DNA from: a virus
Lineage: Duplodnaviria; Caudoviricetes
Virus record (IMG/VR): IMGVR_UViG_3300032288_002134
Span: 872 to 64,871 of that record
DNA: 64,000 bases
Direction: 5' to 3' (one strand)
Shown here one piece after another: positions 1-58,422 of the stretch. Within the stretch, counting starts at the first letter, position 1. Each line of letters starts with the position of its first letter. Made by a program: the position numbers and the translations under genes. The notes under the pieces were generated by a model. The model did no database searches. It was not told where the DNA came from and saw only the letters and a list, made by a program, of their open reading frames with translations.

Positions 1-114
1 TTCGATGATGTATTGAGAGTCCTCTCCTGGTTCTTCAAGTGTTGCCTTATACCCTGGGCAGAAGATGTAATCGTTAATGGTTATTGTGAAACCAAGATAA
101 TCAAATGTAATCAT
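1..114 (-). CDS. hypothetical protein, runs off window start (MITFDYLGFTITIND...)
   Basis: Read by eye: ATG at 114 after an A-rich leader, open to position 1. Confidence 0.6.
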   Translation of the reverse strand, partial: MITFDYLGFTITINDYIFCPGYKATLEEPGEDSQYIIE

Positions 115-139
115 TTTTAAAAGTTTAAGTGTTTAGAAA

Positions 140-412
140 TTAAGATAAAAAACTAAAATCAAAATCATTTATAAAATCCTCTGTTAAGGTCGGCAGCGAT
201 TCTTTTCTTAAATATTCGCCGTTAATAACTAAGTTATCGAATGCCTTGCTACTACTGTTACCTTTTACATTATAACAAGCTCCATCGGTATCCATTAAAA
301 TAGTTGTTTCGCCATTAAATTCCTGAATAATAACTAAGCACTCAGGCGTGAAAGTAAATAATTCGTTTGCTGTTTCGATTGTTACGTTGTTGTTTGTGAT
401 AATAATTTTCAT
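140..412 (-). CDS. hypothetical early protein (90 aa)
   Basis: ORF 140..460 trimmed to MKIIIT, which has an A-rich leader like its neighbours. Confidence 0.7.
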   Translation of the reverse strand: MKIIITNNNVTIETANELFTFTPECLVIIQEFNGETTILMDTDGACYNVKGNSSSKAFDNLVINGEYLRKESLPTLTEDFINDFDFSFLS

Positions 413-439
413 TTTTAAAAGTTTTAAAGTTAAAAAATA

Positions 440-468
440 TTGCAGTGTAAGATGCTGCACCCTATTGA
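440..468 (-). ncRNA. repeated intergenic structured RNA motif, copy 1 (TCAATAGGGTGCAGCATCTTACACTGCAA)
   Basis: Similar to 1532-1563 with compensatory changes; directly after a stop codon. Confidence 0.55.
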
Positions 469-469
469 T

Positions 470-709
470 TTACTTTTCTGTTCCGTACTGCTCAATGTAG
501 TATGCAACGTCATTCCAATTTACTCCGAACTCAGCACTATGTTCTTGAATCATATCTATCAAGCACTGCTTTGCCTGTTCTTCGTTTACTTTATGTGTCG
601 GATGTCTATAGTTTACAAAATCATCTGTATCCCATTTGATAGACTCTTTTTTGTACTGCTCAAATTCTACGAGCAAATCTTCGTACATCTTTTTATAATT
701 TTTTCTCAT
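470..709 (-). CDS. hypothetical early protein
   Basis: ORF in the tightly packed minus operon; ACACCATG start. Confidence 0.75.
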   Translation of the reverse strand: MRKNYKKMYEDLLVEFEQYKKESIKWDTDDFVNYRHPTHKVNEEQAKQCLIDMIQEHSAEFGVNWNDVAYYIEQYGTEK

Positions 710-721
710 GGTGTTAATTTT

Positions 722-1177
722 TTAAATGTTGAAATAAAATTCTTCTATGATATAATCTTTGTTCTCATATTCTTCGCCTCTGAAGGTGTATGTATCAGAG
801 TCTTCGTTATACTCTATCTCATCCAGAAAATCTTGAGGCACGTCATTTGTTTCATGTATTCCATCTGTGTTGTATTTTGTAATGCCGTATATCTCCATGC
901 CTTCTTCACTATAATAGTGTTCAGCGGAGACCTTAAACTGCTTACAAACCATTGCAACATCTTCTATATTCGGACACCATTTTGTTTCGTAATGGATTCC
1001 GTATTCATCCTTATAGATTTCAAAAAAGTACCCACTTTTTATGTCAGATTCATGTATCTTCTGACCTTCGTTTGTCTTACTTTCTTGTGCTATCGCTTTG
1101 TCAATAGCAGCATTGAGTCTGTCAATGTTTTCTTTTTCTCCACTGAAGGAGACTGAATTTGAACACCAGTTTGGCAT
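722..1177 (-). CDS. DUF1281/Api92 (YubB)-like ferredoxin-fold protein
   Basis: N-terminal MPNWCSN and internal YETKWCP, typical of the family. Confidence 0.7.
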   Translation of the reverse strand: MPNWCSNSVSFSGEKENIDRLNAAIDKAIAQESKTNEGQKIHESDIKSGYFFEIYKDEYGIHYETKWCPNIEDVAMVCKQFKVSAEHYYSEEGMEIYGITKYNTDGIHETNDVPQDFLDEIEYNEDSDTYTFRGEEYENKDYIIEEFYFNI

Positions 1178-1189
1178 AGTTGTAATGTT

Positions 1190-1498
1190 TTAAATGTTAG
1201 ATAATTTTGTCATTGTCTCTATCTGTTCTCTCTTTCTCTCTACTATTACTGGGTTGTACTTATTCTTTTGGAATGTGTTGCTTTCTCTCATGGCTATTCC
1301 AAAATTGGCATAGCAGAACATAACTCTGTATGTATTTTTATCTGTCTTCTCTATCAGTGCTGTGTCACTGGTGAAGGCAAAACTTTCTTTCTGTACTTGG
1401 CTTATGTTGTCTGTGTTCATCACTTGAATGCAAGCGCAATTTTGTGCTGATGCTTTGATTGTTAGCAGCGTTAAGGCTGCAAAGATTAACTTTCTCAT
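1190..1498 (-). CDS. putative secreted protein (102 aa)
   Basis: Start trimmed to MRKLIFAALTLLTIKASAQ, a signal peptide with AxA-Q cleavage typical of Bacteroidota. Confidence 0.65.
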   Translation of the reverse strand: MRKLIFAALTLLTIKASAQNCACIQVMNTDNISQVQKESFAFTSDTALIEKTDKNTYRVMFCYANFGIAMRESNTFQKNKYNPVIVERKREQIETMTKLSNI

Positions 1499-1531
1499 GT
1501 GTGTGTGATTTTTTGTGTGTGTTGAAAATGT

Positions 1532-1563
1532 TTGCAGTTGTTCGGATGCTGCGCCCCGATTGA
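1532..1563 (-). ncRNA. repeated intergenic structured RNA motif, copy 2 (TCAATCGGGGCGCAGCATCCGAACAACTGCAA)
   Basis: Covaries with 440-468; begins immediately after a TAG stop. Confidence 0.55.
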
Positions 1564-2112
1564 CTATAGAACTCTTTTGCGCAATGTATCTTTGAACTCG
1601 TCTGTGGCGCATAGTTCTTCAATAGTGCTGTACTCTACATCTTTTGTTTCTAATAAACTTATTCTTTTTTCTGTTGTGTAGTAGATGCCAGAGAATTTAT
1701 ATCTATCCTTTGCGCTGTACTCATCATAAAAACTTTCTCTTCTTATCTTTACTTCAATTGTCACGCAATCATTTTTATGTTCAGATACATAGAATGTACC
1801 ATTATTTGTAAATTGTATCCTACAAATTTTTATTTCTCTGCTGTAAGGGTGTATATTAATCATTGTTCTATCTTCGGGTAAGTCTTCTCTCAGTAAGTCA
1901 GCAATTCTATGTAGCTCATTCTTTTGTAGGTCTGTCCAGATTTGGTATTGGATTTTTTCCTCCTCATCAAGTTGTTTAATTCGTTCTTTTTTGTCTTGTA
2001 GTGGCTTAACGTCTACTAAATTAAACTTTGTTTTCGGCTGTGTTGAAGCGTTTAGTTTTTCGAATTGTGCCGATAGCAATTCGATTGTTTTCTGTTGTGT
2101 GTTGGTTAACAT
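1564..2112 (-). CDS. hypothetical protein
   Basis: 182-aa ORF in operon. Confidence 0.75.
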   Translation of the reverse strand: MLTNTQQKTIELLSAQFEKLNASTQPKTKFNLVDVKPLQDKKERIKQLDEEEKIQYQIWTDLQKNELHRIADLLREDLPEDRTMINIHPYSREIKICRIQFTNNGTFYVSEHKNDCVTIEVKIRRESFYDEYSAKDRYKFSGIYYTTEKRISLLETKDVEYSTIEELCATDEFKDTLRKRVL

Positions 2113-2140
2113 TTTTTAAAATTTAAATTGTTTATAATTT

Positions 2141-2203
2141 GGTTTGTCTCATCAGTGCATCGGAAACCATCTCAATGCATAGGGAGTAAAACTCCCTTTC
2201 GAC
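2141..2203 (-). ncRNA. hammerhead ribozyme, type II with pseudoknot
   Basis: GTC-GAAA-GGGAG(TTTTA)CTCCC-TA^-TGCATTG(AGATGGTTTC)CGATGCA-CTGATGA-GAC-AAACC: full core, three stems, loop I GGTTT pairs with the 3' AAACC. Confidence 0.92.
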
Positions 2204-2394
2204 TATTCCAAATCTTCGTTATACTCAAACGAGCCTGTCTCTATGTATTCAAAAATCTCTTCGAGATACACGAATTCGTAAGTCTTTGAGTCAGCGCAAC
2301 AGATTGTAAAAGTCTGACGGTCGTGTATGTTTTCTTTTTTGTCCGGTATTATTGTACCGGCAGCAATCATTAACCAAAAAAATAGTTGTGTCAT
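2203..2394 (-). CDS. hypothetical protein with hydrophobic N-terminus
   Basis: ORF; ACACCATG start. Confidence 0.65.
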   Translation of the reverse strand: MTQLFFWLMIAAGTIIPDKKENIHDRQTFTICCADSKTYEFVYLEEIFEYIETGSFEYNEDLE

Positions 2395-2406
2395 GGTGTG
2401 TTGTGT

Positions 2407-2628
2407 TTAAAATTTGAATGTGAATTTAATATCTGATTTGTTACTATCTATCGAGTTTAAATAGTTTGATATATTTGTAAATTCATTATGATTTTTTACC
2501 CTCCAACTTTTTAAAAATGGGTAATTTTCATGTATTTCAATATCCAATCCTATGCTTTCAATATATTTTGTAGCTTGATTGAAATTCATTTTTTGGGTTT
2601 CTTTTTTTATTTTTTCTGCTGTTATCAT
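2407..2628 (-). CDS. hypothetical early protein
   Basis: ORF; ACACACCACACCATG start. Confidence 0.7.
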   Translation of the reverse strand: MITAEKIKKETQKMNFNQATKYIESIGLDIEIHENYPFLKSWRVKNHNEFTNISNYLNSIDSNKSDIKFTFKF

Positions 2629-2651
2629 GGTGTGGTGTGTGTTTTAAATTG

Positions 2652-2876
2652 TTAGCAATATTTAAAGTCTATTTTTGCATAGCACTTTGTGAGTGCTTCA
2701 AAATTCTTAATTTTATTTTCAAGTTCTATTACTTCAGATTCATCAAGCTCATCTATATCCTCCCAATATCCGCTTATATCATAGCCTATCGCATCGTAAA
2801 AATGGGTAGTAAAATCGTATAAATTTTCTCTTGTTTGTTCGTACCTTTTTAATAGGCTGATAATTTTATTTCTCAT
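2652..2876 (-). CDS. hypothetical early protein
   Basis: ORF; same leader as 2628. Confidence 0.7.
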   Translation of the reverse strand: MRNKIISLLKRYEQTRENLYDFTTHFYDAIGYDISGYWEDIDELDESEVIELENKIKNFEALTKCYAKIDFKYC

Positions 2877-2891
2877 GGTGTGGTGTGTGTT

Positions 2892-3113
2892 TTAAAGTGA
2901 ATAATATTTTATAAATGCTTTAGCCGATAGTGTGTAAAACTCAGCGTACAAATCTGAGTTTTTTAAATTATCTTTAACCTGCTTGATATACATTTTTTTA
3001 GTCTCATTATCGCCCATCTCATAAAGTAGAATACTTTGTTCAAAGATTTTTTTTGCCTTTATAATTGTTACATCACAATTACAATTCTTTTCAATCCATT
3101 TTAAAGGTTTCAT
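2892..3113 (-). CDS. hypothetical early protein
   Basis: ORF; ACACCATG start. Confidence 0.7.
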   Translation of the reverse strand: MKPLKWIEKNCNCDVTIIKAKKIFEQSILLYEMGDNETKKMYIKQVKDNLKNSDLYAEFYTLSAKAFIKYYSL

Positions 3114-3132
3114 GGTGTTATGTTTTAAATGT

Positions 3133-3225
3133 TTATAAAATGATTGCTAATAAATAGCAGTAAGTTAATATTATTGCAGTAATCATAAGACCGCAAAAGA
3201 AATTGTTTAATTCTGTTCTGTCCAT
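3133..3225 (-). CDS. small membrane peptide (30 aa, MDRTELNNFFCGLMITAIILTYCYLLAIIL)
   Basis: Read by eye; ACACCATG start; fills an operon gap. Confidence 0.55.
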   Translation of the reverse strand: MDRTELNNFFCGLMITAIILTYCYLLAIIL

Positions 3226-3245
3226 GGTGTTAAAAATGTTTTAAA

Positions 3246-3434
3246 TTATAAATTGCTTTGATATTCTAAAATTCCATTGATTGCAATCTGCAAAATGTCG
3301 TCATATTCTGACTCGTGAACATCGTTCCAGTCACCGTTACCGTTGTCTAAACTTTTACAGATTGAAACCAAAAGTTCCAAACTACATTTTTTTAGTTCGT
3401 CAATTTTAACGGTTCTAATGTTTATAATTTTCAT
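3246..3434 (-). CDS. hypothetical early protein
   Basis: ORF in operon. Confidence 0.65.
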   Translation of the reverse strand: MKIINIRTVKIDELKKCSLELLVSICKSLDNGNGDWNDVHESEYDDILQIAINGILEYQSNL

Positions 3435-3497
3435 GTTAAGATGTTTTAATGATTAAAAAATATTTGCAGTTTTGGTAAGGTCTGCAAACTTTTATTT

Positions 3498-4229
3498 TTA
3501 ATAGTCAGTTATAACAAAACCTGATTTGTCTTTTCGTGCGCTACCTTTAGCCTTTAAGCCTAAAATGACTCCTTTTGGGCAATCAAGCATCAAATCGTCG
3601 CGTGAATCCCCGTCTAATACTGTAAAACCTTTGTATGTTTTCGGTAGTTCCTTTGCGAAAACCATTGCGACGATGCCACCATTTTTTAGTATATCAATAC
3701 ACTGCTCTTCGTTATCCTCAGAACGTGAAAACGTCACAACATATCTGTGCAAAGTTTCTGTTATACGTTCACCTTGCTTTTGCCAAATTTTTGTGTAATC
3801 ATAAAAGACTACATTTGGCGCAATGTCATACATTGAGCAAAGTTGCTCAACTAACTTAATGTCAGACGTTCCATTGAGTCTTACGGCCAATTCGCCTTTT
3901 GTTTTTTTAGCTTTTTTGTTTATTTCTGTGGCAATTTGTTCTAAAAACTTGAACCTATCTTTTAAGTAGAGTTCAGTTCTGTTAATTCTTGCACTTTGAA
4001 CGTTTAAGTATACGCCACGTCCTGCGGTATAAAGGCAAGCTTTTAAACAGCCTTCCGACGCCATAGGGCATAAATTAATACCTTTGCTGTTTTGCTTTGC
4101 GGGAGATAAGTACAAAATTAACGTTTCACGTTCATTTTTAGCCGTTTTTGTGTTAGTTACACCGTCAGATAATAATTTTTTAACTGATTTGATTTCAGTT
4201 TTTGTCAATTCTAAAGTATTGCAATTCAT
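3498..4229 (-). CDS. phage Gp88-like protein with three-Cys motif (radical-SAM-like)
   Basis: CPMASEGCLKAC, VRLNGTSD, FYDYTK, GLKAKG motifs. Confidence 0.7.
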   Translation of the reverse strand: MNCNTLELTKTEIKSVKKLLSDGVTNTKTAKNERETLILYLSPAKQNSKGINLCPMASEGCLKACLYTAGRGVYLNVQSARINRTELYLKDRFKFLEQIATEINKKAKKTKGELAVRLNGTSDIKLVEQLCSMYDIAPNVVFYDYTKIWQKQGERITETLHRYVVTFSRSEDNEEQCIDILKNGGIVAMVFAKELPKTYKGFTVLDGDSRDDLMLDCPKGVILGLKAKGSARKDKSGFVITDY

Positions 4230-4267
4230 AATAATAAAAGTTTAAATAATTAAAAAAAATTGTTAGC

Positions 4268-4324
4268 GCGCTTTTCAGATTCGAACCAAAAAAAGTATTA
4301 AAATACTTTGCAGCCATGCAGCGC
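4268..4324 (-). ncRNA. small tRNA-like structure in the early leader
   Basis: GCGCT/AGCGC closing stem, two short hairpins, T-arm TTTGG-TTCGAAT-CTGAA. Confidence 0.45.
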
Positions 4325-4976
4325 AAAAATTGTTTTTTACCGTCATTTTTATATCTGATTTTCAAAATTCCCCTCAGATACATATCAAAACCTATCATTT
4401 TTTGATATCGCAAATATTAACTCGGGTTAATATTACGTTTGTGCTTTTCACTAAAAGTTGAATGCCACAAAAAGAATAATACTAAAAAAGTATTTTTACG
4501 GTAACCGATTGTCAAAAAACTAAAGCAATTAAACAAAGATGATGTAAAACTACATTATAAATTAATTGCTTTGCGAGTCTTATTTTTATGCTCTATTGAA
4601 TCGCGTATATTGCCTTTTGCAATCGTATCTGTTGCGATTCTGATGTAAACATAAAACGACTTTTTTTATTATTCAAACTTTTAGCAAAATATTTTTTAAA
4701 ATTGATAAAAATAAATTTCCACCAAATAAAAAAATATGTCCAAGATTGGCTGTTTATCGTGCTTTCAGCCGGAATGCCGATGAATACAGCGTTTGAAACC
4801 AAAAGATAGTAATAATCGGGCTTTCAGCGATTGAAAAAAATTTTAAAAAAAAATTAAAATTGATAATAAAATGATTCAGTAATTAGGATTGTGAAGGCAA
4901 AAAAGAGAGGGTAACTATTCTGTCGAAAATAGTTTTTTGGTAAAAAAATGCGTCTCCCAGTGCGCAAAAAAATGCA

Positions 4977-5041
4977 AAAAGTAAACTATAATTGAGAAAA
5001 TAGTTTAGCGAAAAGTAAACTATAATTGATAAAATAGTTTA
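4977..5041. repeat. two 31-bp direct repeats, each an interrupted palindrome TAAACTAT-N10-ATAGTTTA
   Basis: 4977-5007 and 5011-5041 differ at one base. Confidence 0.85.
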
Positions 5042-5438: not shown

Positions 5439-5687
5439 ATGAAGCAGAAGTTGAGTATTAAGAACAGTATCTACCAAGGTGGGTACAATGGAGGTGGAAG
5501 TGGTTTAACTGTTCAGGGTGGAAGACTGATCAACAATAGACCATGTGCCGAGTCCGGTATTGCTATTATGGCTAAAGCCAGGAAAGAAGCGAAGCGTCAG
5601 GAGAAGATTGAGACGATCGCTGAAGGCTATGCTAGAGGAGAGATGAGGGTAGAGATGAAGGAGAATATCCTTGGATACCTCATGTAA
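5439..5687 (+). CDS. hypothetical protein, first plus-strand gene
   Basis: 82-aa ORF followed by a terminator. Confidence 0.7.
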   Translation: MKQKLSIKNSIYQGGYNGGGSGLTVQGGRLINNRPCAESGIAIMAKARKEAKRQEKIETIAEGYARGEMRVEMKENILGYLM

Positions 5688-5809: not shown

Positions 5810-5975
5810 ATGTCAATAATTGACATTAAAATGTCAATAAAATGTCAATAAGAATATAGTAAATACTATAGAATGTCGAAAATGTCGAAAAAAAAAACAG
5901 TTACAGATTTGGTGTTATGTTAAAGAATATAAAAATATATAGAGAGTATATAGGAATTGAAAATCGGTATTCGGG
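5810..5975. repeat. iteron-like element, copy 1 (putative origin)
   Basis: ATGTC(A/G) repeats plus 19-mer and 26-mer identical to those in 56347-56531. Confidence 0.65.
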
Positions 5976-6104: not shown

Positions 6105-7739
6105 ATGTTTGACAACACAGGTTACACTCCGAAGGATTTGTTGTTCGGAGACGATGCTAGAGCCAAGCTCATTAGTGGCATAAACAAGATTGCCAATGCG
6201 GTGAAGAGTACATTAGGTCCTGGAGGGAATACGGTACTGATAGAGTCACCTCATCACACACATGGTATTACAGTTACGAAGGATGGTGTCACAGTTGCGA
6301 GAGCTGTGGACTTGTTTGATCCGGTGGAGAACCTTGCGGTAAGGATGATGAAGGAGGCAGCGGACAGGACTGCTACCAATGCAGGTGATGGTACTACGAC
6401 AGCGATAGTGTTGACAGAGGCACTGGTGCTTGAGGGTATAAAGAGGCTTACGCCAGAGGTGAACAGGACAGAGGTGCTGAGGCACATGGGTGACATAACA
6501 GGGAGTATAGTAGAGCAGCTTCGTAAGAGGGCTAAGAAAGTGACGAACTCGTTATTGTTGGATGTGGCTACCATATCGGCTAATAATGACAAGGAGATAG
6601 GTCGGATAATATCCGAGGTGTATAAAGAGATAGGGAGAACCGGTATCGTTACCGTTGAGAAATCACAGACCTATGAGACCTATGCAGAGACAACGAAAGG
6701 GATAAAGTTCGACAGAGGGTACACATCCAATCTGTTTATCAACGACCATAAGAAAGACGAGTGCGTATTTGAGGATGTGATGGTGTTGGTTGCCGACATT
6801 GAGATAAGTAACATCCTGCAAGTAGAGAACATACTAAAACCAATCATAACCGAGGGCAAAAAATTGCTCATCATTTCCCCCTGTAGCACTAACGTGGTGA
6901 ATACACTGGCTGCCAATGTAGTGAAAGGCAATGTAAAGGTTTGTGCTGTTGCCCCACCAAACTTCGGGTACAAACAACATGAGCTGATGCAAGACATTGC
7001 TGTCAGTGTAGGTGCTACATACTTCAGCGAGAAGACCGGTGATGATCTGTCAATTATGAACTATGGAGACCTGGGTCATGCTGCCAAGGTCATCGTGTCC
7101 AAAGACAGCACTGTGATCCTTAAATCGGAGTTCAAGTCAAAGCCTGAGATGATTGACGAGAGAGTGAAGCAGTTATGGTCTGCTCACGCTGCTGCAAAGC
7201 GCAAGGCAGACAAAGACTTCATCCTTGAGCGTATCGCTTCGCTTACCGGTGGTATTGGTGTCATCTTCGTGGGTGGTAATACTGACCTGGAGCAGAAAGA
7301 GCTTTATGACAGAGTGGATGATGCGGTATGTGCTGTGAGGTCTGCATTAGAGGAGGGTATCCTTCCAGGAGCAGGCAAGGCATTGTACGAGGTGAACGTG
7401 TTTGGTATCATGGGGGATAATCCAAGCCATGAGAGAAAGGTGGCTGCGCATATCATCCATCATGCACTGTCAAGACCACTATGCCAGATCCTTGAGAACG
7501 TAGGGTTGAGAATAGAGCAGATATATGTTGACAACTGCGATGAGGGCTATGGGTATAATGTCAAGACAGAAGACTTTGGAGACCTTATCAAAATGGGGGT
7601 CGTTGACCCATTGAAGGTGACAAGGAGCGCACTCCAAAATGCTGTTAGCGTAGCGACAACAATTCTTAGCACTAATGCCATCGTCACAATGGCAAGAAGC
7701 TTTGAGATTGCTAACGTATCTAAAAACCCAATGCAATGA
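6105..7739 (+). CDS. groEL: chaperonin GroEL
   Basis: STLGPGG, VTKDGVTVA, AGDGTTTA, GVVDPLKVTRSALQNA; lacks the GGM tail. Confidence 0.97.
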   Translation: MFDNTGYTPKDLLFGDDARAKLISGINKIANAVKSTLGPGGNTVLIESPHHTHGITVTKDGVTVARAVDLFDPVENLAVRMMKEAADRTATNAGDGTTTAIVLTEALVLEGIKRLTPEVNRTEVLRHMGDITGSIVEQLRKRAKKVTNSLLLDVATISANNDKEIGRIISEVYKEIGRTGIVTVEKSQTYETYAETTKGIKFDRGYTSNLFINDHKKDECVFEDVMVLVADIEISNILQVENILKPIITEGKKLLIISPCSTNVVNTLAANVVKGNVKVCAVAPPNFGYKQHELMQDIAVSVGATYFSEKTGDDLSIMNYGDLGHAAKVIVSKDSTVILKSEFKSKPEMIDERVKQLWSAHAAAKRKADKDFILERIASLTGGIGVIFVGGNTDLEQKELYDRVDDAVCAVRSALEEGILPGAGKALYEVNVFGIMGDNPSHERKVAAHIIHHALSRPLCQILENVGLRIEQIYVDNCDEGYGYNVKTEDFGDLIKMGVVDPLKVTRSALQNAVSVATTILSTNAIVTMARSFEIANVSKNPMQ

Positions 7740-39799: not shown

Positions 39800-42700
39800 A
39801 TGAACGAAGAGGCAGTAAAATACGCTTTTGATTTATTTGTAAAAGATGGATATGGTGATAATATAGATGATTTTAGAAATCTAATGAAATCAGATCCAAA
39901 AGCAATTGATTATGTTTTTAATTTATTTGTAAAAAATGGATATGGTGATAATATAAATGATTTTAAAAATCTATTAGGAATTACTCAATCCCAAGCAATC
40001 ACTCCAAAAAAAAAAGGAGAGAGTATGGTATCCGACTCGGAAGTTTCTTCTTCGGGTTTACCATCGGGTGAACAGCCTAAGCTTGAAGAGATACCTTTCT
40101 CTTTGGATTATCAGAAGCAACAGCAGCAAGTACCATTTAAGCCTTCAACTCCGGTAACTCAACCTGAGCAGAAAAGAGACGTGTCTAAACTAAAAGAATA
40201 TGATACTACTCAACAGTATGACAGATATGGTGTGCCTGTTACTCAGTTTCCTACAGCACAAAGAGAAGAGTATTTAGCTAAACCGGTACAGCAGATTGAG
40301 ACAAAAGTCAAGTTTGAAGAAAAGAAAGAGGAGCTTGAGAAACAAGTACCTGGTTTCTTAAAGCCATCTGTAGAGACAATAGACAAAAACTTTTTAGCTA
40401 GAACTTCACTTCCAATAATAAGCGATTTAAACAGACAATACAAAGAAGCAGGTTTTGAGTTTTCAGGCAATCCTGCTGATAAAACATATTTAATAGCAAA
40501 AGCTCCAAATGGACAAACATTAAATATCAATTTAGGATATTTTAATAATGCAGGATATATAAATGATATATCAGATGAAGCAGAAAGGTTAAAAGTTTTT
40601 ATCAAAGAAAATTCTCCATCTATACCGACTGAAAAAGTAAATAAATTACAAAAGGAATACGAGGAAGGTAAGCAAGAATTTCTTACACAAAAACAAATAG
40701 ATGAATCGAATAAATCTCTTTCAAAAGATTTAGAAGATTATGGCAAAAGAAATTTATCTTATACTCAGAGTTTAGATAATTTAAAAAAATCAATTGATGA
40801 ATTTAATGCAATACCTGAAAGTCAAAGAAATACTCCTGAATATATAAATAGAAGAAATGAAATTCAAAAACAAACTGATATATTGATTTCAGAGGAGAAC
40901 AGTCTTAAGCAATTTGAGAAAGATATAGAAGCTAAACAAAGTAATTTAAAAAAGTCACTAGGAGAATATACAAAGTATAAAGAAAATCAAGGTACTTTTG
41001 CAGGTGGTATTTGGAATTCAATATCAAATACAATAAGTTCAATGGTCGCAGGAACTGTTGCTGCCGGATCTGATATTATAACAGGGGCAACTCCTGCTGA
41101 ATGGTTATTAGGTAAAGAAGAATATGAAAAGCAATTCACTCAGATTGCCAAAGAAAAATATGGAATAGAAGGAGATAAATTTGATGACATAATAAGAAAT
41201 GATAAGTTAACAGAAGGAAGAGCAGCTCTTATAAATAGTGAATTAAAAGACAGAGTAAAGAAAGAACGAAAATATGGCAAAGAAGGGGAAGAAGGTGTAA
41301 TAAAATATCTAAGAGGTAGTGTGTATGATTTATTGGCAGATAAAAGCACTACTGAACAATGGGCTGAATTAAAAAATAAATCATTTATACCTCAAGCTAT
41401 ATTGGGTGTTAGTGGTAGCCTTCCAAATATGTTGATGCCTGGGGGTTGGATAGGTCGTGCTTTAGGTACTTTTATATCTACTTCTGATGGTGTATTTAAA
41501 GAAATGGAAAATAGTCCTAATTTCCAAAATATATCTGAAAATGAAAAATGGGCTGTTGCTGCTCCTTTAGGAATGGCTTCTGCTACATTAGAAGAGATAG
41601 GTTTATCTTCATTGTTAAAAGGAACTAATATAACAAAATATATAACAAAGATGGCATTAGACAAAGCAGGTGCTAATGTTACTCCAAATATATTTAAAGG
41701 ATTAGTAAAAAAAGAAGTTCAGGATTTAATATCTAATGGTACTCTAAAAGTAGTAAATGGTTTTTTAGCTGAAGCAGAAACAGGTGCTTTGCAAACAATA
41801 GCGGAATTTTCAATAAAGGATATATACAATACGGTAAAAGATAAAAAAGACGAAAACGGAAACCCTGTAAAGATGTTTGATACGCCTGATACTGTAACTG
41901 AATGGGTTACTGATGTATTGTATGGAGGTGCTGTTGAAGGTGTTGGAGGTCTTATGATTTCATCTGGTATGGCTGCTGCAAGTGCTTTTAATAATGACAA
42001 TTTTGTCAATATGGATAGCGATACTTTCAAGGCATTTGTTAATTCTTCAAATGATTTGAATGTAGAAAAAGCATTTATATCTGATTTGAAAAATAAGATT
42101 GCATCTGGAGATATGACAATGGCTGAAGGCAAGGATTTATTAAATAAATATAGACAAGCCAAAGGACTATTAAATTCATTGCCTAGCGAATTGGATGAAA
42201 AAGATAAAAGAGTAGCTTTAGATTTATTGAGTAAAAGAAAAAAGTTAGAGGATAAGATCCAAGGAAAAGATACAGCATTAGCTAAACCTATTCAGAATAG
42301 AATTGATCAAATTAACGAACAACTAAATCAAATAACAGAGAATGCCATTCAAAAGCAAACAGCAGGTGAAGTACCTGTACAGCCAGAAGCCGGAGTTGGC
42401 GAAGAAGTGGTCCAAGGAAAACCCGAAACAGGACTTGAAGTCACTTCCGAACAAGTTGTCACCGAAGAAAAGCCAAAAGAAGAGGTAGTAACACCTGAAG
42501 GTGTAGTAGAAAAAAAAGATATACAAGTTTACAGAGGTACATCTACTGGAAATAAATCTGATAAAGACGGAGTATCTTACCATACAACAGATAGAGGGTA
42601 TGCAGCGTTTTATGAAACAGGAAAAGAAAAGCCTGATAATAAAGCTTTAGAAGAACTTGAAGCCTTAACTCCTCCGAATAAACCAAATAAAGTAGAATTA

Positions 42701-45700
42701 TCAACTGAAGAGGAAGTAGATGCTTATGTTGATCAATGGATTTCTGACTATGAAGACGCAAAAAGATTCAAACCTGAGACTAAAATACCTTCAAGAGAAG
42801 AAGCTATATCAGAAATGAAACAGAGCGGTTATCCAATATTTCTTACTCAAGAAGAGGTTGATAACGAAAACAAAAAACAAGAGAAAAAATATAATTCTGA
42901 TTTAGAGAAATACAATCAAAAGAAATTAGAACTTGAAGATAAGGCTAAAAATTATTTATCACCCAAAAAAATATCTGGCAATTTCTTTAATCTTGGGATT
43001 GATTTTTCAAAAATGAATCCTCAACAGATATTTGAAAAATTGAAATCATTAGGAATATCAAGTGTGTTTAAAGGCGGTAATTTTTTAGACAATTATCATT
43101 CTGACTTAACAGAATATGCAAGAAAAAATAACATAGATTTCTATGATGGCATAACCGGTGGTGTTCAAGGTAGTATGAATACTGCTCCTCAAGAGATAAT
43201 TGAAGTTTCTAAATTAGAACAAGCACCTGCTGAGGTAAAGACTCCTGAGCAGGAAGCTGACCTATTGGAGGAATTACTGACCGGAAAGAAGAAAGAGCCG
43301 GCAATGACACCTCAAGTGGAAACAATGACACCTGGGGAAAAAGTAATGACACCTGAAGCGAAAGCGGAAGAAGAGATGATAGTTCAGCCTGAGTTTACCG
43401 AGCAGGATCAGGCAAGGAAGAGAGAGCTTGAAGATGCTCTGAAGAAGGCTGACAAGCGTAAGAAGAATGTTATGGTAGGTGAGGTGTCAATGCCAAAGGC
43501 TGAGGTTAAAGCAGAGCTTGATGCATTGAGACAGAAGGAGCAGGCTGTTGTTGAGGCAGAAGTTCAATCTATAGAAAAAATGTTATCAGCTCCTGAGCAA
43601 AAAGACAAAGGAAAGATAAGACAAGCTGTAACAAATGCAGTTAAGGCTATTGCTAAAATATTACCGAATACAAAGATAGTATTACACGAAACTAGTCAAG
43701 ATTATGTAAACGCTACCGGTGATACTGACAATGCATCAGGATTATATGTACCAAGCGCAGATGGAGGTACTATTCATATAAACTTATCTAATGCCAATAC
43801 AAGAACAGTAGGGCATGAGGTATTTCATGCTACATTACTCAGAGGTATTAAGACAGATGCTGAAGCTCAGAGATTAGCGAAAGCAATGATAGGAGCTGTA
43901 GCTAAGTCATTAAAACAATCAGGCGCAAATCAAGAGTTATTAAATGAACTTGAAAATTTCTTGTCTAACTATGATGAGAATATTCAAAATGAGGAATACT
44001 TAGCTGAAGTATTTGGATATCTCGCTGATGGATACCCACAGTTGACAGCACCTGAAAAAAGTATTATCAATAGATTCATTGAGAGAATAATGAAACTGTT
44101 TGGCTTAAAGCCAATGACAGACAAAGAGGTTATTGATTTTATGAATACCCTATCAAGGAAGGTAGCTACCGGTGAAGAGATAACAGAGAAAGAAGCAGGT
44201 ATTACAAAAAGAACTAAAGGAATATCTAATATAACAAAAAGATTTCAAGCAAATTTTATAGATCCTATTTCAAGACTTTCATTTGTTTATGATAAAAATA
44301 GTGAAAAATTTGAAAATTTAAAAAAGCAAGGATTTATAACTACAGATAAATCATTATCTGATTTTAATGGGAAATTTATATTCCTACATCAACCTGATGC
44401 AGCTTTTTCAGGTATGATTTATAAAAATAATGAACTTCTTGTTGAGGGAAAAGGAGGTGTTTTTTATCCTATTAAATTCCATGAAGATGGATATTTTTGG
44501 GCAAGTACATCAAAAACTGCCAAAAAAATGGCAGACGATTTAAATAAAGTATTAAAACAAAACAATGGAATTATTTATATGGCATTAACCTCTGCGCCAT
44601 ATGATAAACTAATGTCAAGCACAACAATGTCAAATGCAATACTTGATTTTTTCTCATCAAAAGCATTTGATAAAAATTTTAATATAACTCAAAAACAATT
44701 AAAAAATGCACTAATATTAGCTGCAAATAATGTAAAAGAAAAACAAAAAAAAGATAAAAAAACGGGAGAAATTACTACTAAAACTATAGGGTTAAATTTA
44801 AATATAAAACAAAATATTTCTTTAGAAAACATTCAAACTTTAATTAAAGAAAAATTAAATCCTGATAATAGTTCATTTGCAGATAGAAAGAATTTTGCTG
44901 AAGAGTTAATAAGAATAATGGCTGAGAATATTAAAGAAGATTCTAAGGCTATTGAACAATTTGGTAAATTATTCTCTGAAGGAATTCAAAATAAATATTT
45001 TAAAGGAATAACAAAAACAGGTAAATTAAGCATTAGTGCTGCAAATATGACTCAAGCACTATCTGAAATGTTTACTGAACCAATTTTAAAAGAAGGAATT
45101 GATAGAGAAAAAGGAGGTCAAGTATATGCTATATTAGAATTGAATGGTAAAGTTAAACCTGTTGAATCTAATAAACACGAATCATATCCTATGGCTATAC
45201 AGTCAGAAGGAAGTGAAAAAGTAAAAGTTCATGTTCTGAATGATAGACAGAATTGGTATGATGTATTTGAAGATTTTGAAACAAATGACATAGTAACTGA
45301 AGATAGAAAAAATAAAATATATCCTACTTCAGGAGTTTCGACAAGAGGATTAAAATTAAATACATCAAAAGTTGATGGCATATCACCTCGTCAGCAGAAA
45401 TCTACTGAAATAACAACAGATAAAGATGCTAAACCTGGCTTTGAAAAAGCTCTTAATTCGCTTAATGAAACTGAACAACAAAGAGAAGAATGGAGAAAAA
45501 CGCATAAAGTAAATCAAAAACAAAAACGTAATCCCATAGTAGAACAAGCTGTAAAAGATTATTATAATGAAAAAATAACTCAAGAAGAATATCTTGATAT
45601 AGTTTCTAAAAACCAACCTATTAAATCTTTTAAAAATGTTCCAAAATTACCAACTTTAAGAGAAATAACAAATTCTTTAGACAGCTCTAAAGTTGCCACA

Positions 45701-48700
45701 GGTATAATTGGATTAACTAAAAATTTAGAAGATGGAGAAAAAGTAGCTTGCAGATTAGATATACCTGCATATGAAGATTTTGATACTTGGGTTGTTTCTA
45801 TACATGATGGAAATAAAGAAGGAAAATCAATTGCATACGGTCAGACAGCTGTACTAAAAAATGTTGATTTTAAAACATTTCCTGGACCTGCAATGAAAAT
45901 TGCAATGGGTACTCAAAGTAAATCTACAATTGCTAGAATGTTTGGTAATTGGGTTAATGAAGATCCAGAATCAGTTCATGCAAGAGCAAAAGAACTAATG
46001 AATGACCCTGCTTGGACACAAGTAGGAATGAATCCATTTAGATATAGTTGGTTTTATGATAAGGCAGATGGAACGCCTATTTCTACAGCTGATGAAGTTA
46101 TTCAAGTGGGTGCATTAGTATTGGCTAAAAATGCAAAAAAAGTATCTACTAAAGATATAATGTTTGAAACTAAATCATCAACAGGATTATCAATAAGGTT
46201 TCAAAAAAATAATTCACAAGAAATTGTAAAACAAGCAAGAGCTAATGGTATATCAGATGCAGGCATAAGAGCCTATTTTAAAAAGAATGGTTTGTCTGAT
46301 ATTGAAATTGATGAATTACTTGAAGGAGAAAAAGGAGCAGGCAAAAAAATTGAGCTTTCTGAAGAGACTCTTCCTGGATACACCAAACTGATGAACAGAA
46401 TAAATGGTCTCATCTCAAGGGGTAGAAAAAGCGGAAAGTCTGATGATGTAATAATGCAAGGTGTTATTGCCAATGTAGAAGCAAACTCACCGGAATATGC
46501 CAATGCTACCGATCAACAGCGTGAGCAGATAATTCGTGACATCAGAAAGATGTTCGGAAAGAAAGAAAAGGCAGCACCATCAGCAGAGAAAATAACCGGT
46601 AAACCTAAATCTAAAAAGGTTACTGTAAATGAAATGGCTGCACTCAAAGACCAAATAAGATTAGAGGCAAGAGCTGCTAGAGAAGCTAAGGGTGATCTTA
46701 ATGCTAAACGTAAAATGTTAGCTGAGGCTATCAATAAACTCGTTGCTAAAGGTACTATTACCTTAAGACAAGCTAACGCTATTATCAAAAGGGTGAACCT
46801 GGTCAACCTTGACAATCCTATAATGGTTGAGAGATTACTTAATTATGCAGAAAAAGTATTTAAAGATGCTGAATATGCGGATAAATTAAGCGAAGCAAAT
46901 AAATTATTTTCATCTATAAAGCAATCGTCAAAGTCAAAAGAAAAGAATGCTGATTTAGTAACTCTTGCAAAAGAATTTTTAGGAATAGACCCATCTATGG
47001 TTGAGAATATAGATGAGTATATTCAAAAGGCTTCTGAGTTAGATAGTAGTTTAAAAGGTTCTAAGGCTACGGCAAAAGGTATGTCTGCTTCTGAAATGAT
47101 AAACATACAAGAAGCTACTGAATACATATCTGAAACAATAAAAGCTCAGGAGCAAAAGATAAAAGAACAGACTGCTGCTGAGATAGAGTCTACAATGGGT
47201 GTAGATGCATCTGATTTGACTTATGAACAAATGCTTGAGTTACTTGAAGATGAAAGTAAACCTATCAATAAAGATAAAGAAAAGGTTATCAGGAGTTTAG
47301 TTAATAAAATGTTTGATACATATTCAAGTATTATCGAATATATGTTTAAGACTGGTAAAAATCCTTTTGTTGTTTATGATGAGAATCTAAAATACGAACC
47401 GGTAACATTTAAAGAATCGGATAAGCAGATTGTTCGTGAATTTATGAAAATGGATCTCGGTAAGCTCAGTGTCAGAGAGGCATTGAAAGCTATGGATGCA
47501 TTAAATAACTTTATTGTCAATCGTTCAGTTGCCAATATGGGTTCTGTAGTAGCCCAATATAAAGCAAAACAAAACGCTGAAATAGTTGACAAAAAAAATA
47601 TAAGAAGCAAACCTGTAAAGTATTTATGGAGTAATACTTTGGGTAAAATGCTATTTGACAATTTTGCTTCATTCCCATTATTGATAGAAAGATTCTTTAA
47701 AAGTAAAGACATTGGTTTGTATGTATCCAGAATGATGGGTTTAAATGATTTGTTTAATGGTGCTTCTTCTGCAAAAACGATAACCGGTGTTGTAGTTAAA
47801 AACTATCTTGACCTATTCTCAAAAACAAAACCAAATGGTAAAGTATTTAATGATGCTTTTAACTTGGTAGAAAGGGGAATGGTTGCATTCATGTCAAGAC
47901 ACAAGATAGGAACGGATGCTCAGATAAAAGAAGAATTTAATGACAGAAAAAATGAAATTGAAGAGTCTATAAAAGCATTGTCTACAGGTACTAAAAGAGA
48001 ACAGGAAAAAGCTAAGGTTTATAAAGAAGTATATGACAAGTTGTTTAAAGATGCAAAGAACGCAGATGACATCAGAAATAATGCGGATAATAAAAATATA
48101 GAAGCTGTAGATTGGTGGGTTAACGAATGGAAAAATCATTATGATGAGTTAGCTGATGTATCATTAAAAATATACAATACAAAACTGGATAAGGATTCTT
48201 ATTACACCACCGATAGATATTCTAAATTGGAAGGGGTAGAAAAAGAAATAGATCTTGAGGATAATGTTTCAGCATTTAGCTTTAACAATGGAAATATATC
48301 TGAAAAGAAAGCAGGATCTTTAATGGAGACAAGAGATAAGAAATCGGGTCTTCCAAAAAATAAAGATGGAGAAGTCACAAGGTTTGTTGATTTATCTTTT
48401 GATGCCGTAAATGCAAATTCATTATACGATGCACTGACAGACATTAAAACTGCCTATGCTATTAAACAAGTAAAAGCATTTATGAAAACAGATGCTTTCA
48501 AAAGAATTGTACCTGATAAAGAAGAAAGAGATATATTAGGAAATAGAATAAACTTAGCTGTTAGAAATTTAAGAAATCAAAAATTATTTGATTCAAGTAC
48601 AATGAGTAAAGCTGTAAAGGGATTAAATAAATTTTCAAGCATTGGGTCTACAATGGCATTAGCCGGTATAGTGCAACCTTTTAAACAAACTATTCCTATA

Positions 48701-58338: not shown

Positions 58339-58422
58339 TAGTCAGGACAGGATTCGAACCTGCATCCCCATACTATTGGGTAAACGGATTTGCACCGTAT
58401 GTTAACTTTACACTACCTGACT
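58339..58422 (-). tRNA. atypical tRNA or tRNA-like RNA, possibly Leu(CAA)
   Basis: AGTCAGG/CCTGACT acceptor, GCAGG-TTCGAAT-CCTGT T-arm, ACGG-TGCAAAT-CCGT arm, long variable arm; no CCA, non-canonical D-loop. Confidence 0.5.

Follow-up and report, generated by a model that had tools for sequence, protein, structure and literature searches.

Hammerhead ribozymes and a recurrent H-type pseudoknot as candidate punctuation elements in a leftward phage operon

The window analysed here is a 64,000-nucleotide stretch of a Caudoviricetes genome (bases 872-64871 of IMGVR_UViG_3300032288_002134, a virus record of 64,871 bp that is complete and has terminal repeats), and the elements under study lie between the small minus-strand genes at its left end. 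Two unrelated kinds of putative cis-acting RNA occupy these spacers, each inserted after the stop codon of one gene and ahead of the usual short, A-rich leader of its successor: a type II hammerhead ribozyme and a compact pseudoknot in three copies, one of them divergent. The favoured reading, held with about even confidence, is that the operon mRNA would be punctuated by a 5'-end-forming hammerhead and by 3'-boundary pseudoknots, cleavage and barrier or attenuator action being predicted from sequence. The elements are as follows.

2138-2204, minus strand: type II hammerhead ribozyme, identified by core, fold, Rfam alignment and homologues
1532-1559, minus strand: canonical pseudoknot (51.7 bits with R2, the pseudoknot covariance model; orthologous copy in relative L118)
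440-463, minus strand: variant pseudoknot (R2 25.3 bits, E 0.005)
3464-3492, minus strand: divergent 'class B' copy, assigned by position and architecture only

An earlier sequence-only reading of this DNA had placed a hammerhead at 2141-2203. A complete, genuine type II hammerhead is confirmed by its sequence features at 2138-2204(-), and self-cleavage is predicted for it. Along the minus strand, the element runs from one stem II strand through GAAA, the stem III hairpin, U-A, the cleavage site and the stem I hairpin to CUGAUGA (2149-2155) and the other stem II strand. The core is intact, with CUGAUGA, GAAA and a C-U-A cleavage triplet, and it contains the conserved CUGANGA, GAAA, A15.1-U16.1 and a non-G cleavage nucleotide. 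Stems III and I are 7-bp hairpins (2182-2196 and 2156-2179), stem II is open (GUC/GAC), and the cut is predicted between A2180 and U2179. A pairing of loop I (UGGUUU) with the 3' tail (AAACCA) makes the pseudoknot which, according to the accessible part of PMC3088659, type II hammerheads typically have and require for rapid cleavage. The minimum-free-energy (MFE) fold is a three-way junction with z = -4.41, and none of 200 shuffles is as stable. The element overlaps the UAG stop (2203-2205) of a 63-aa gene, and 25 nt separate its end from the ATG at 2112. The Rfam search that had been proposed as a check returns Hammerhead_II (RF02276), aligned over its full length (model 1-66; 31.3 bits, E 4.5e-5 in a 131-nt search only) at a score below the gathering threshold; it returns nothing for the pseudoknots or for a leader fold discussed below.

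The same architecture is found with a strict descriptor in three relatives, L110, L113 and L118, and a covariance model seeded on two relatives' copies retrieves all four type II hammerheads, the window copy at 47.5 bits. Across the four complete copies, 12 of 18 pairs are changed on both sides, 98.6% of cells are paired and none of 500 shuffles reaches as high a value; these figures refer to n = 4 sequences, whose alignment was fitted to the model. The pairing of loop I with the tail is kept as UGGUU/AACCA in L110 and L113 and as UGGC/GCCA in L118.

A survey with the strict descriptor for all three hammerhead topologies, covering 80 chaperonin-anchored loci of relatives, many of them cut short upstream, supports ribozyme punctuation as a sequence-level trait conserved in the whole phage group. 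Hammerheads are located in 29 of the 80 loci, with 58 on the operon strand (45 type III, 10 type I, 3 type II) versus none on the other; the 46 distinct sequences comprise 35 type III, 8 type I and 3 type II. All are intergenic. In 31 of the 46 distinct sequences, 14-24 nt separate the end of the ribozyme from the next ATG, and the distance from the preceding stop is variable (-12 to 67 nt). Window positions 2110-2156, which hold the 3' half of the hammerhead and the leader, form one homology block with L110, L112 and L113. Types I, II and III occur interchangeably in such slots, and because the distance of ~20 nt to the next ATG is fixed and the homology blocks include the downstream leader, the hammerheads are read as 5'-end-forming elements for the downstream cistron. 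Which element follows the first long gene differs between genomes: it is a pseudoknot in the window, L119, L112 and L115, and it is a type II hammerhead in L110 and L118. The sequence-only reading had described an early transcript cut and protected by RNA elements; the hammerhead survives from that proposal as a predicted protein-independent cutting element, with its 58-to-0 strand distribution, and a tRNA-like leader fold does not.

The covariance-model search also returns three partial hammerheads, at L112 1508-1610(-), L115 2880-2956(-) and L110 1916-1993(-). These keep the 3' strand of stem I, CUGAUGA, stem II and the tail, without GAAA and stem III, and they could be decayed copies or recombination remnants.

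At the three places where a GCAG/CTGC motif had been noticed, the motif is present. The pattern GCAG-N7-14-CTGCAA has seven matches in the window versus 0.79 expected, a number that none of 100 shuffles reaches, and its minus-strand intergenic matches lie at 440-458, 1532-1552 and 3464-3485. These sites belong to a conserved RNA element that is structured, as had been suspected; they are not simple hairpins, since they form H-type pseudoknots, in which a first stem (S1) crosses a second (S2, GCAG/CUGC) and three loops join the strands. The four elements also stand, as described earlier, right after stop codons (3498-3500, 2203-2205, 1564-1566 and 470-472) and before the ATGs at 3434, 2112, 1495 and 412.

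In the canonical copy at 1532-1559, S1 pairs C1558-G1555 with U1546-G1543 and S2 pairs G1552-G1549 with C1537-C1534, leaving GC in loop 1, CA in loop 2 and AACAA in loop 3. Its GGGG starts 6 nt past the UAG stop (1564-1566), a U4 run follows, and the next ATG is at 1495. An orthologous pseudoknot lies in L118 behind a gene homologous to the one upstream of 1532-1559; window 1527-2127 is homologous to L118 3501-4084 over leader, 182-aa gene and pseudoknot, and the pseudoknot therefore travels with its upstream gene. In the variant copy at 440-463, S1 (A463-G460/U452-U449) includes two G.U pairs and S2 joins GCAG (455-458) to CUGC (442-445); GGG starts 7 nt past the UAA stop (470-472), a U6 run follows, and the ATG that comes next is at 412. 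Contig L527 of a Bacteroidetes metagenome-assembled genome (MAG) has this GGG/UCUU variant as well. The divergent copy at 3464-3492 forms a 7-bp stem, UUUGCAG/CUGCAAA (3483-3489/3464-3470), around a 12-nt loop (hairpin z = -3.31), with a possible 3-bp S1 of AAG (3490-3492) and CUU (3478-3480). It lies 5 nt past the UAA stop (3498-3500) of a GP88-family gene and is followed by a U6 run and the ATG at 3434. At the corresponding position in L119, L112 and L115, S1 is clear and S2 differs in sequence yet stays complementary: UCGGU/ACCGA in L112 and L115, UUGCAGU/ACUGCAA in L119, with S1 AGG/CCU throughout. Copies of the motif are also found in the nearest relatives L118, L119 and L112. In all three window copies, a U4-U6 run begins 2-4 nt past the stem.

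Beyond this phage, two pattern scans of viral contigs, the first leaving flanks and loop free and the second using the resulting extended consensus, together give at least 104 unique instances; the counts that follow refer to the 104 listed. The consensus spans 24-29 nt and consists of GGGG, one pyrimidine, GCAG, CAUCC, 3-8 variable bases ending in (C)A(A), and CUGCAA, between unconserved, A-rich flanks. Its H-type fold has an S1 of N-GGG/UCC-N' crossing an S2 of 4-7 bp, with a loop 1 of 1-2 nt, a CA loop 2 and an A/C-rich loop 3 of 4-9 nt. The unpaired G of loop 1, the CA of loop 2 and the CAA of loop 3 are nearly invariant.

Both helices of the pseudoknot covary, and on this comparative evidence the motif is read as a conserved structured RNA element, more than a hairpin. 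The bases of the S1 closing pair, before GGGG and after CAUCC, were left free by the search pattern. They form a Watson-Crick pair in 50 of the 55 motifs of 26 nt (A-U 32, C-G 16, U-A 2) and in 31 of 34 in a gap-free subset alignment, where none of 500 shuffles is as high and slid registers collapse. Over all 104 instances the pair is Watson-Crick in 67, versus 44.7 +/- 4.2 after shuffling, with a maximum of 59 in 10,000. S2 is swapped for GAGG/CCUC in extra copies on the same contigs, L317 and L251, and has G.U variants in L359 and L112. The G.U pairs, together with strict co-orientation with genes, indicate that the element is a sense-strand RNA. A first model, with a 4-5-bp S1 (UCGG/CCGA, UAGG/CUUA) further upstream, was rejected: it fits 4 of 80 collection matches, at least 2 of them by chance. 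That S1 holds within the window's sub-clade and is superseded by N-GGG/UCC-N'.

The motif has a sharply defined place relative to the upstream gene. The stop codon of an open reading frame (ORF) of at least 40 codons lies within 60 nt upstream in 102 of the 104 instances, and the stop-to-motif spacer has a minimum of 4 nt and a mode of 7 nt (35 cases; 8 nt in 18), falling at 4-18 nt in 96. The next ATG-led ORF follows at a loose distance of 4-114 nt and begins within 120 nt downstream in 96. A U4 run occurs within 12 nt after the motif in 37 instances versus 1 in the next 12 nt. The flanking genes fall into 74 distinct upstream and 60 distinct downstream clusters; common neighbours are the ERF, NinB, Cro/CI-type helix-turn-helix (HTH), Lin1244-like and phosphoesterase genes of early or recombination operons. 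No gene family is common to 100 pseudoknot-bearing contigs, the best being ERF-type in 21 of the 100.

The motif is absent from 50,697 cultured-phage records, where a 38-nt motif query gave only 17-nt chance matches. A far larger collection of cellular contigs gives 109 matches, all single and scattered over unrelated, mostly GC-rich taxa, roughly the number estimated for chance, and none of the 80 listed of these 109 has a phage-type context. Four copies lie in one Bacteroidetes MAG, spread over three small contigs that carry small ORFs and are probably phage DNA; in a sample of 150 other genomes of its phylum, a search with strict filters gave no match at E<=0.01. In the phage family of the window, only the sub-clade made up of the window, L112, L115, L118 and L119 has the pseudoknot, and a generic descriptor gives six after-stop matches on the operon strand (one doubtful) and one on the other strand; the rest of the family has type III and type I hammerheads instead. 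Hammerheads are rare in the 100 pseudoknot-bearing contigs: the hammerhead model (R1) finds none better than E 0.29, and the descriptor finds one, a type I hammerhead in L313 that lies ~300 nt upstream of the pseudoknot on the same strand.

As proposed, the hammerhead would cut between A2180 and U2179. The upstream RNA would keep a 2',3'-cyclic phosphate behind the stem III hairpin, and the downstream RNA would begin with a 5'-OH and the stem I hairpin, ~65 nt before the ATG. For the upstream cistron, the pseudoknot would act as a 3'-boundary element, its compact fold halting 3'-to-5' decay; in copies with a following U-run, among them all three of the window, it might cause transcription attenuation in addition or instead. 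The 7-nt mode of the spacer would place it just outside the footprint of the terminating ribosome, the smallest distance that leaves the pseudoknot folded. The segments of the operon would thereby gain different stability.

Several observations weigh against this reading. The window hammerhead scores below the Rfam gathering value (31.3 vs 37 bits) and was missed by three broader Rfam scans, namely of the whole window at gathering level, of 5.2 kb at E<=10 and of its own genome record. The search pattern fixed GGGG, GCAGCATC and CTGCAA, so that ascertainment is biased; the covariation of S2 is based on few variant copies, and that of S1 on one pair plus the class B variants. In the 24-nt class, the S1 closing pair forms in only 9 of 37 instances, presumably because loop 3 is too short. 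R2 does not retrieve the copy at 3464-3492 at E<=10. For the window pseudoknots, nested folds reach a z of only -0.8 to -0.9; a 4+4-bp pseudoknot is thermodynamically weak, and its activity as a barrier is uncertain. Only 18 of the 104 instances pass the classic terminator criterion. That the sequence of loops as well as stems is so highly conserved suggests catalysis or recognition by a specific partner (a protein, the RNA polymerase or the ribosome) rather than a passive roadblock. That window 1-4400(-) is the start of a leftward early operon is a reasonable reading of the sequence, in which 'early' comes from gene content and position only.

The near-invariant loop bases therefore keep rivals at the levels of translation, transcription and processing under consideration. 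With the stop codon in the A site, a pseudoknot at the mRNA entry channel might pause or tune termination, insulate cistrons or hand ribosomes on, in the last case as a standby or re-initiation site for the next start, which lacks a Shine-Dalgarno (SD) sequence. This translational role is rather unlikely, even though the spacer (mode 7 nt, minimum 4 nt) has the geometry of recoding stimulators, which sit at 5-9 nt, the motif always lies in the sense strand between two ORFs with an ATG-led ORF close downstream, and the leaders have no SD sequences. Recoding proper was rejected, as the stop is TAA in 93 of 100 cases, extensions have a median of 15-17 codons in every frame, and the downstream ORFs are spread over the frames (22/35/36); the 4-114 nt to the next ATG also fit a positioned ribosome-loading site poorly. 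A transcription signal, to which only a small probability is likewise given, would be either an unusual intrinsic terminator or attenuator, with an S2 hairpin and an S1 that compacts the loop, or a polymerase-binding antiterminator RNA of the put type. The enrichment of U-runs directly after the motif, the U4-U7 runs after all three window copies and L524, the long spacers resembling new transcription units that follow some instances, the location in early operons with ERF, NinB and Cro/CI-type genes, and the strong sequence conservation, which suits binding to a conserved machine, all speak for it. However, 64% of instances have no U4 run and all but the 18 mentioned fail the classic criterion; none of the three window copies is flagged by a terminator scan. 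Real terminators occur universally, in contrast to this motif, which the host genomes searched lack, and processive antitermination needs no multiple copies per operon.

It is improbable that the pseudoknot is a processing site that does the same job as the hammerheads, whether as a new, very small RNA that cuts itself or as the target of a dedicated endoribonuclease. It does share the slot behind the first gene with the type II hammerheads of L110 and L118 and the strand of the type I hammerhead in L313, and it is phage-specific with nearly invariant unpaired nucleotides, like catalytic cores. Its 24-29 nt, however, are below any known natural self-cleaving class, hammerheads are rare in the contigs that bear it, no protein family is common to them (best 21 of 100), and it is tied to the stop whereas hammerheads are tied to the ATG. 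Very improbable is a role outside mRNA processing, in which the GCAG/CUGC sites would be DNA-level recombination repeats at cassette boundaries, of the T4 PeSL or integron attC kind, or decoy RNAs mimicking a host antitoxin or defence RNA. The highly diverse flanking genes would suit such repeats, as would homology blocks that stop at the motif and a relative without exactly one gene (joint 714/1183), and the accessible part of PMC3475682 reports phage-borne pseudoknot mimics of type III antitoxins. Yet G.U pairs occur in either helix and the motif is strictly co-oriented with genes, both signs of an RNA, and the 714/1183 joint lies in a TTTAAAA leader motif, not in a pseudoknot. An antitoxin mimic was rejected: copies are single and separated by genes, with no tandem arrays, every listed cellular match is single, there is no host counterpart in the 80 listed cellular matches or the 150 genomes of one phylum, and Rfam gives no match.

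The punctuation of the operon by hammerheads and pseudoknots has precedents in part. Hammerhead arrays flank genes in prophage and phage polycistrons, according to the accessible part of Perreault et al. 2011 (PMC3088659). That hammerheads yield transcripts of different stability or translatability is presented as a hypothesis, published and unproven, in the accessible parts of PMC3088659 and PMC6765202, the latter of which calls the role of bacterial and phage hammerheads a long-standing open question. The window hammerhead belongs to a known kind, and the idea of operon punctuation is already published. It resembles known type II hammerheads and prophage arrays in its core, open stem II and loop I-to-3'-tail pseudoknot, in its intergenic place in a phage operon and in the presence of several ribozymes per operon in relatives. 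It differs from known type II hammerheads in its score below the Rfam cut-off. Unlike prophage arrays, types I, II and III interchange in equivalent spacers of one phage family, ~20 nt before the ATG, and in the window's sub-clade hammerheads alternate with an unrelated pseudoknot.

The early mRNA of T7 is a polycistron with structured RNase III sites between its cistrons. The sequence-only reading had compared the window elements to these sites, and the likeness extends to structured intercistronic elements that would leave structured RNA ends. It goes no further: the RNase III sites are hairpins of ~20 bp, the window holds no such extended hairpin, its stems, at 4-7 bp, are much shorter than RNase III requires, and a hammerhead needs no protein. 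An RNase III site of the T7 early type was rejected on these grounds. Among compact H-type pseudoknots are the preQ1-I riboswitch aptamer, the -1 frameshift pseudoknots of the luteovirus type and the T4 gene 32 leader pseudoknot, and the motif shares with them a size of ~25-34 nt, the H-type fold, a short loop 1 and an A-rich loop 3. As in recoding signals, it lies 6-8 nt from the A-site codon. Unlike frameshift pseudoknots, it has no slippery site and no extended frame; unlike preQ1-I, it has no conserved expression platform, and with lax filters no Rfam 15 family matches at E<=10 on 418 nt holding the three window copies, for which preQ1-I and other pseudoknot riboswitches were rejected. Unlike all these pseudoknots, it occurs in several copies per operon, behind unrelated genes. 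At gathering level, Rfam has no match in 149 kb of 11 pseudoknot-bearing loci. With intrinsic terminators and 3' stabilisers like repetitive extragenic palindromes (REP), the motif shares its place just after stops and, in about a third of instances, a U-run. It departs from them in its weak stems, its large loop closed by a second helix, its near-invariant sequence and phage specificity, and in the majority without a U-run.

The pseudoknot appears to be a new, abundant phage RNA motif, found neither in Rfam 15 nor in the 50,697 cultured-phage records. No description of it was found in the literature searched, subscription journals and supplementary motif lists (e.g. RAGATH candidates) lying outside that search. 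A bolder and improbable proposal is that it is a new class of phage RNA doing the hammerhead's job by other means, as the smallest natural self-cleaving RNA or as a handle for a coupled cut or stop; such a handle could be sequence-specific and coupled to ribosome, polymerase or nuclease, right behind the stop codon. If this were true, Bacteroidota phages would have at least two interchangeable RNA-only devices dividing early polycistrons. Dozens of related genomes that swap hammerheads of three topologies and the pseudoknot in equivalent intergenic slots constitute an unusually clear natural experiment. The sharp positional rules (hammerhead ~20 nt before the ATG, pseudoknot ~7 nt after the stop) make 5'-end and 3'-end functions testable, and for host systems without Shine-Dalgarno sites, the pseudoknot offers a candidate module of regulation or processing.

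The tRNA-like fold that had been read in the leader of the operon is not upheld, and it is listed for completeness.

4268-4324, minus strand: 'tRNA-like' leader fold, judged not a real feature

A cloverleaf-like MFE structure is present, with a stability no higher than that of shuffles (z 0.06 and -0.24). ARAGORN finds no tRNA gene in the leader, Rfam with lax filters gives no tRNA match at E<=10 in the 135-nt leader locus L023, and window 4192-4975 has DNA similarity in no relative. The leader has only a T-loop 10-mer in common with the phage's real tRNA and is probably a chance resemblance. The structural conservation in related phages that the sequence-only reading had taken as its touchstone is present in the hammerhead and the pseudoknots and missing in this leader. 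The real tRNA, at 58339-58422(-), scores 42.7 bits with Rfam; its anticodon and T arms are set apart by a long insertion, which is probably a long variable arm. ARAGORN, unlike Rfam, finds no tRNA in the whole window.

The genes around these elements form the following unit.

1-4229, minus strand: leftward operon, promoter-proximal part (from the ORF list, Pfam and PHROGs)

A GP88-family gene at 3498-4229(-) heads the operon (Pfam GP88, E 6.7e-38) and is followed by ~13 small ORFs of 30-182 aa, mostly without a family in Pfam or PHROGs; ORF 722-1177(-) has DUF1281_C in Pfam. The operon extends past window position 1 into genome bases 1-871, and farther minus-strand genes on the circular map encode a Sak-type annealing protein, an exonuclease, methyltransferases, a thymidylate synthase, a helicase and a primase-helicase. 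A GP88 gene at the head of the operon in every relative was considered and rejected: the gene that comes first in L118, L119, L112 and L113 gives no Pfam match (BLASTP E 0.8), and true GP88 homologues are only those of L110 and L115, with L108/L001 also found by tblastn. Three phage contigs that share no relationship with the window apart from a GP88 gene each have a type I hammerhead on that gene's strand, 0.5-0.7 kb downstream (L008 ~4963-5031, L010 ~3667-3735, L012 ~6281-6349 (+)); GP88 may be a hammerhead-associated gene family.

The leaders of the operon contain no SD sequences. A repeated leader word (TTTAAAAC..., then an A/C-rich run and ATG) precedes nearly every minus-strand ATG between 114 and 3434, with examples at 714-730, 1183-1200 and 2630-2650, and frequently overlaps the preceding stop. 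In a relative's contig, position 714 is fused to 1183, so that exactly the 151-aa gene is gone, and because of this joint the leader repeat may mediate gain and loss of gene cassettes. Sequencing run X1 (share 0.05) holds contigs, probably DNA, of a relative.

By its terminase sequence, the phage is taken to be a distant relative of Flavobacterium and Cellulophaga podophages: the protein is 45% identical to that of Flavobacterium 'elemo' phages, Cellulophaga and Tenacibaculum phages also match, and one uncultured record is 78% identical. Several hundred related uncultured contigs exist; a 6-kb query has no blastn match among cultured phages, and a search for close relatives via the 182-aa protein returned none.

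On the opposite side of a 1.9-kb divergent region lies the phage chaperonin gene, followed by structural genes. The chaperonin is of the GroEL type and is encoded at 6105-7739(+) (PHROG E 1.8e-133); farther along, a 3,441-aa ORF at 39800-50125(+) has almost no family match. Rfam gives no match in 1.75 kb of the divergent region in gathering and lax scans. The stretch from the leftward operon to the chaperonin gene contains three operator-like palindromes, AAACTAT-N9-ATAGTTT, at 4913-4935, 4984-5006 and 5018-5040; two of them form a 34-nt tandem, and the repeat is kept in L115 and L112. They are probably a repressor-binding site governing the divergent promoters. An 82-aa ORF at 5439-5687(+), inside this supposedly non-coding region, lies in a DNA block kept in more than 10 relatives and is probably a real gene. 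The non-coding segment 5755-5964 upstream of the chaperonin gene is kept in many relatives, and the distant relatives L182, L165 and L145 match its core, a 24-nt word at 5872-5895, at 100% identity.

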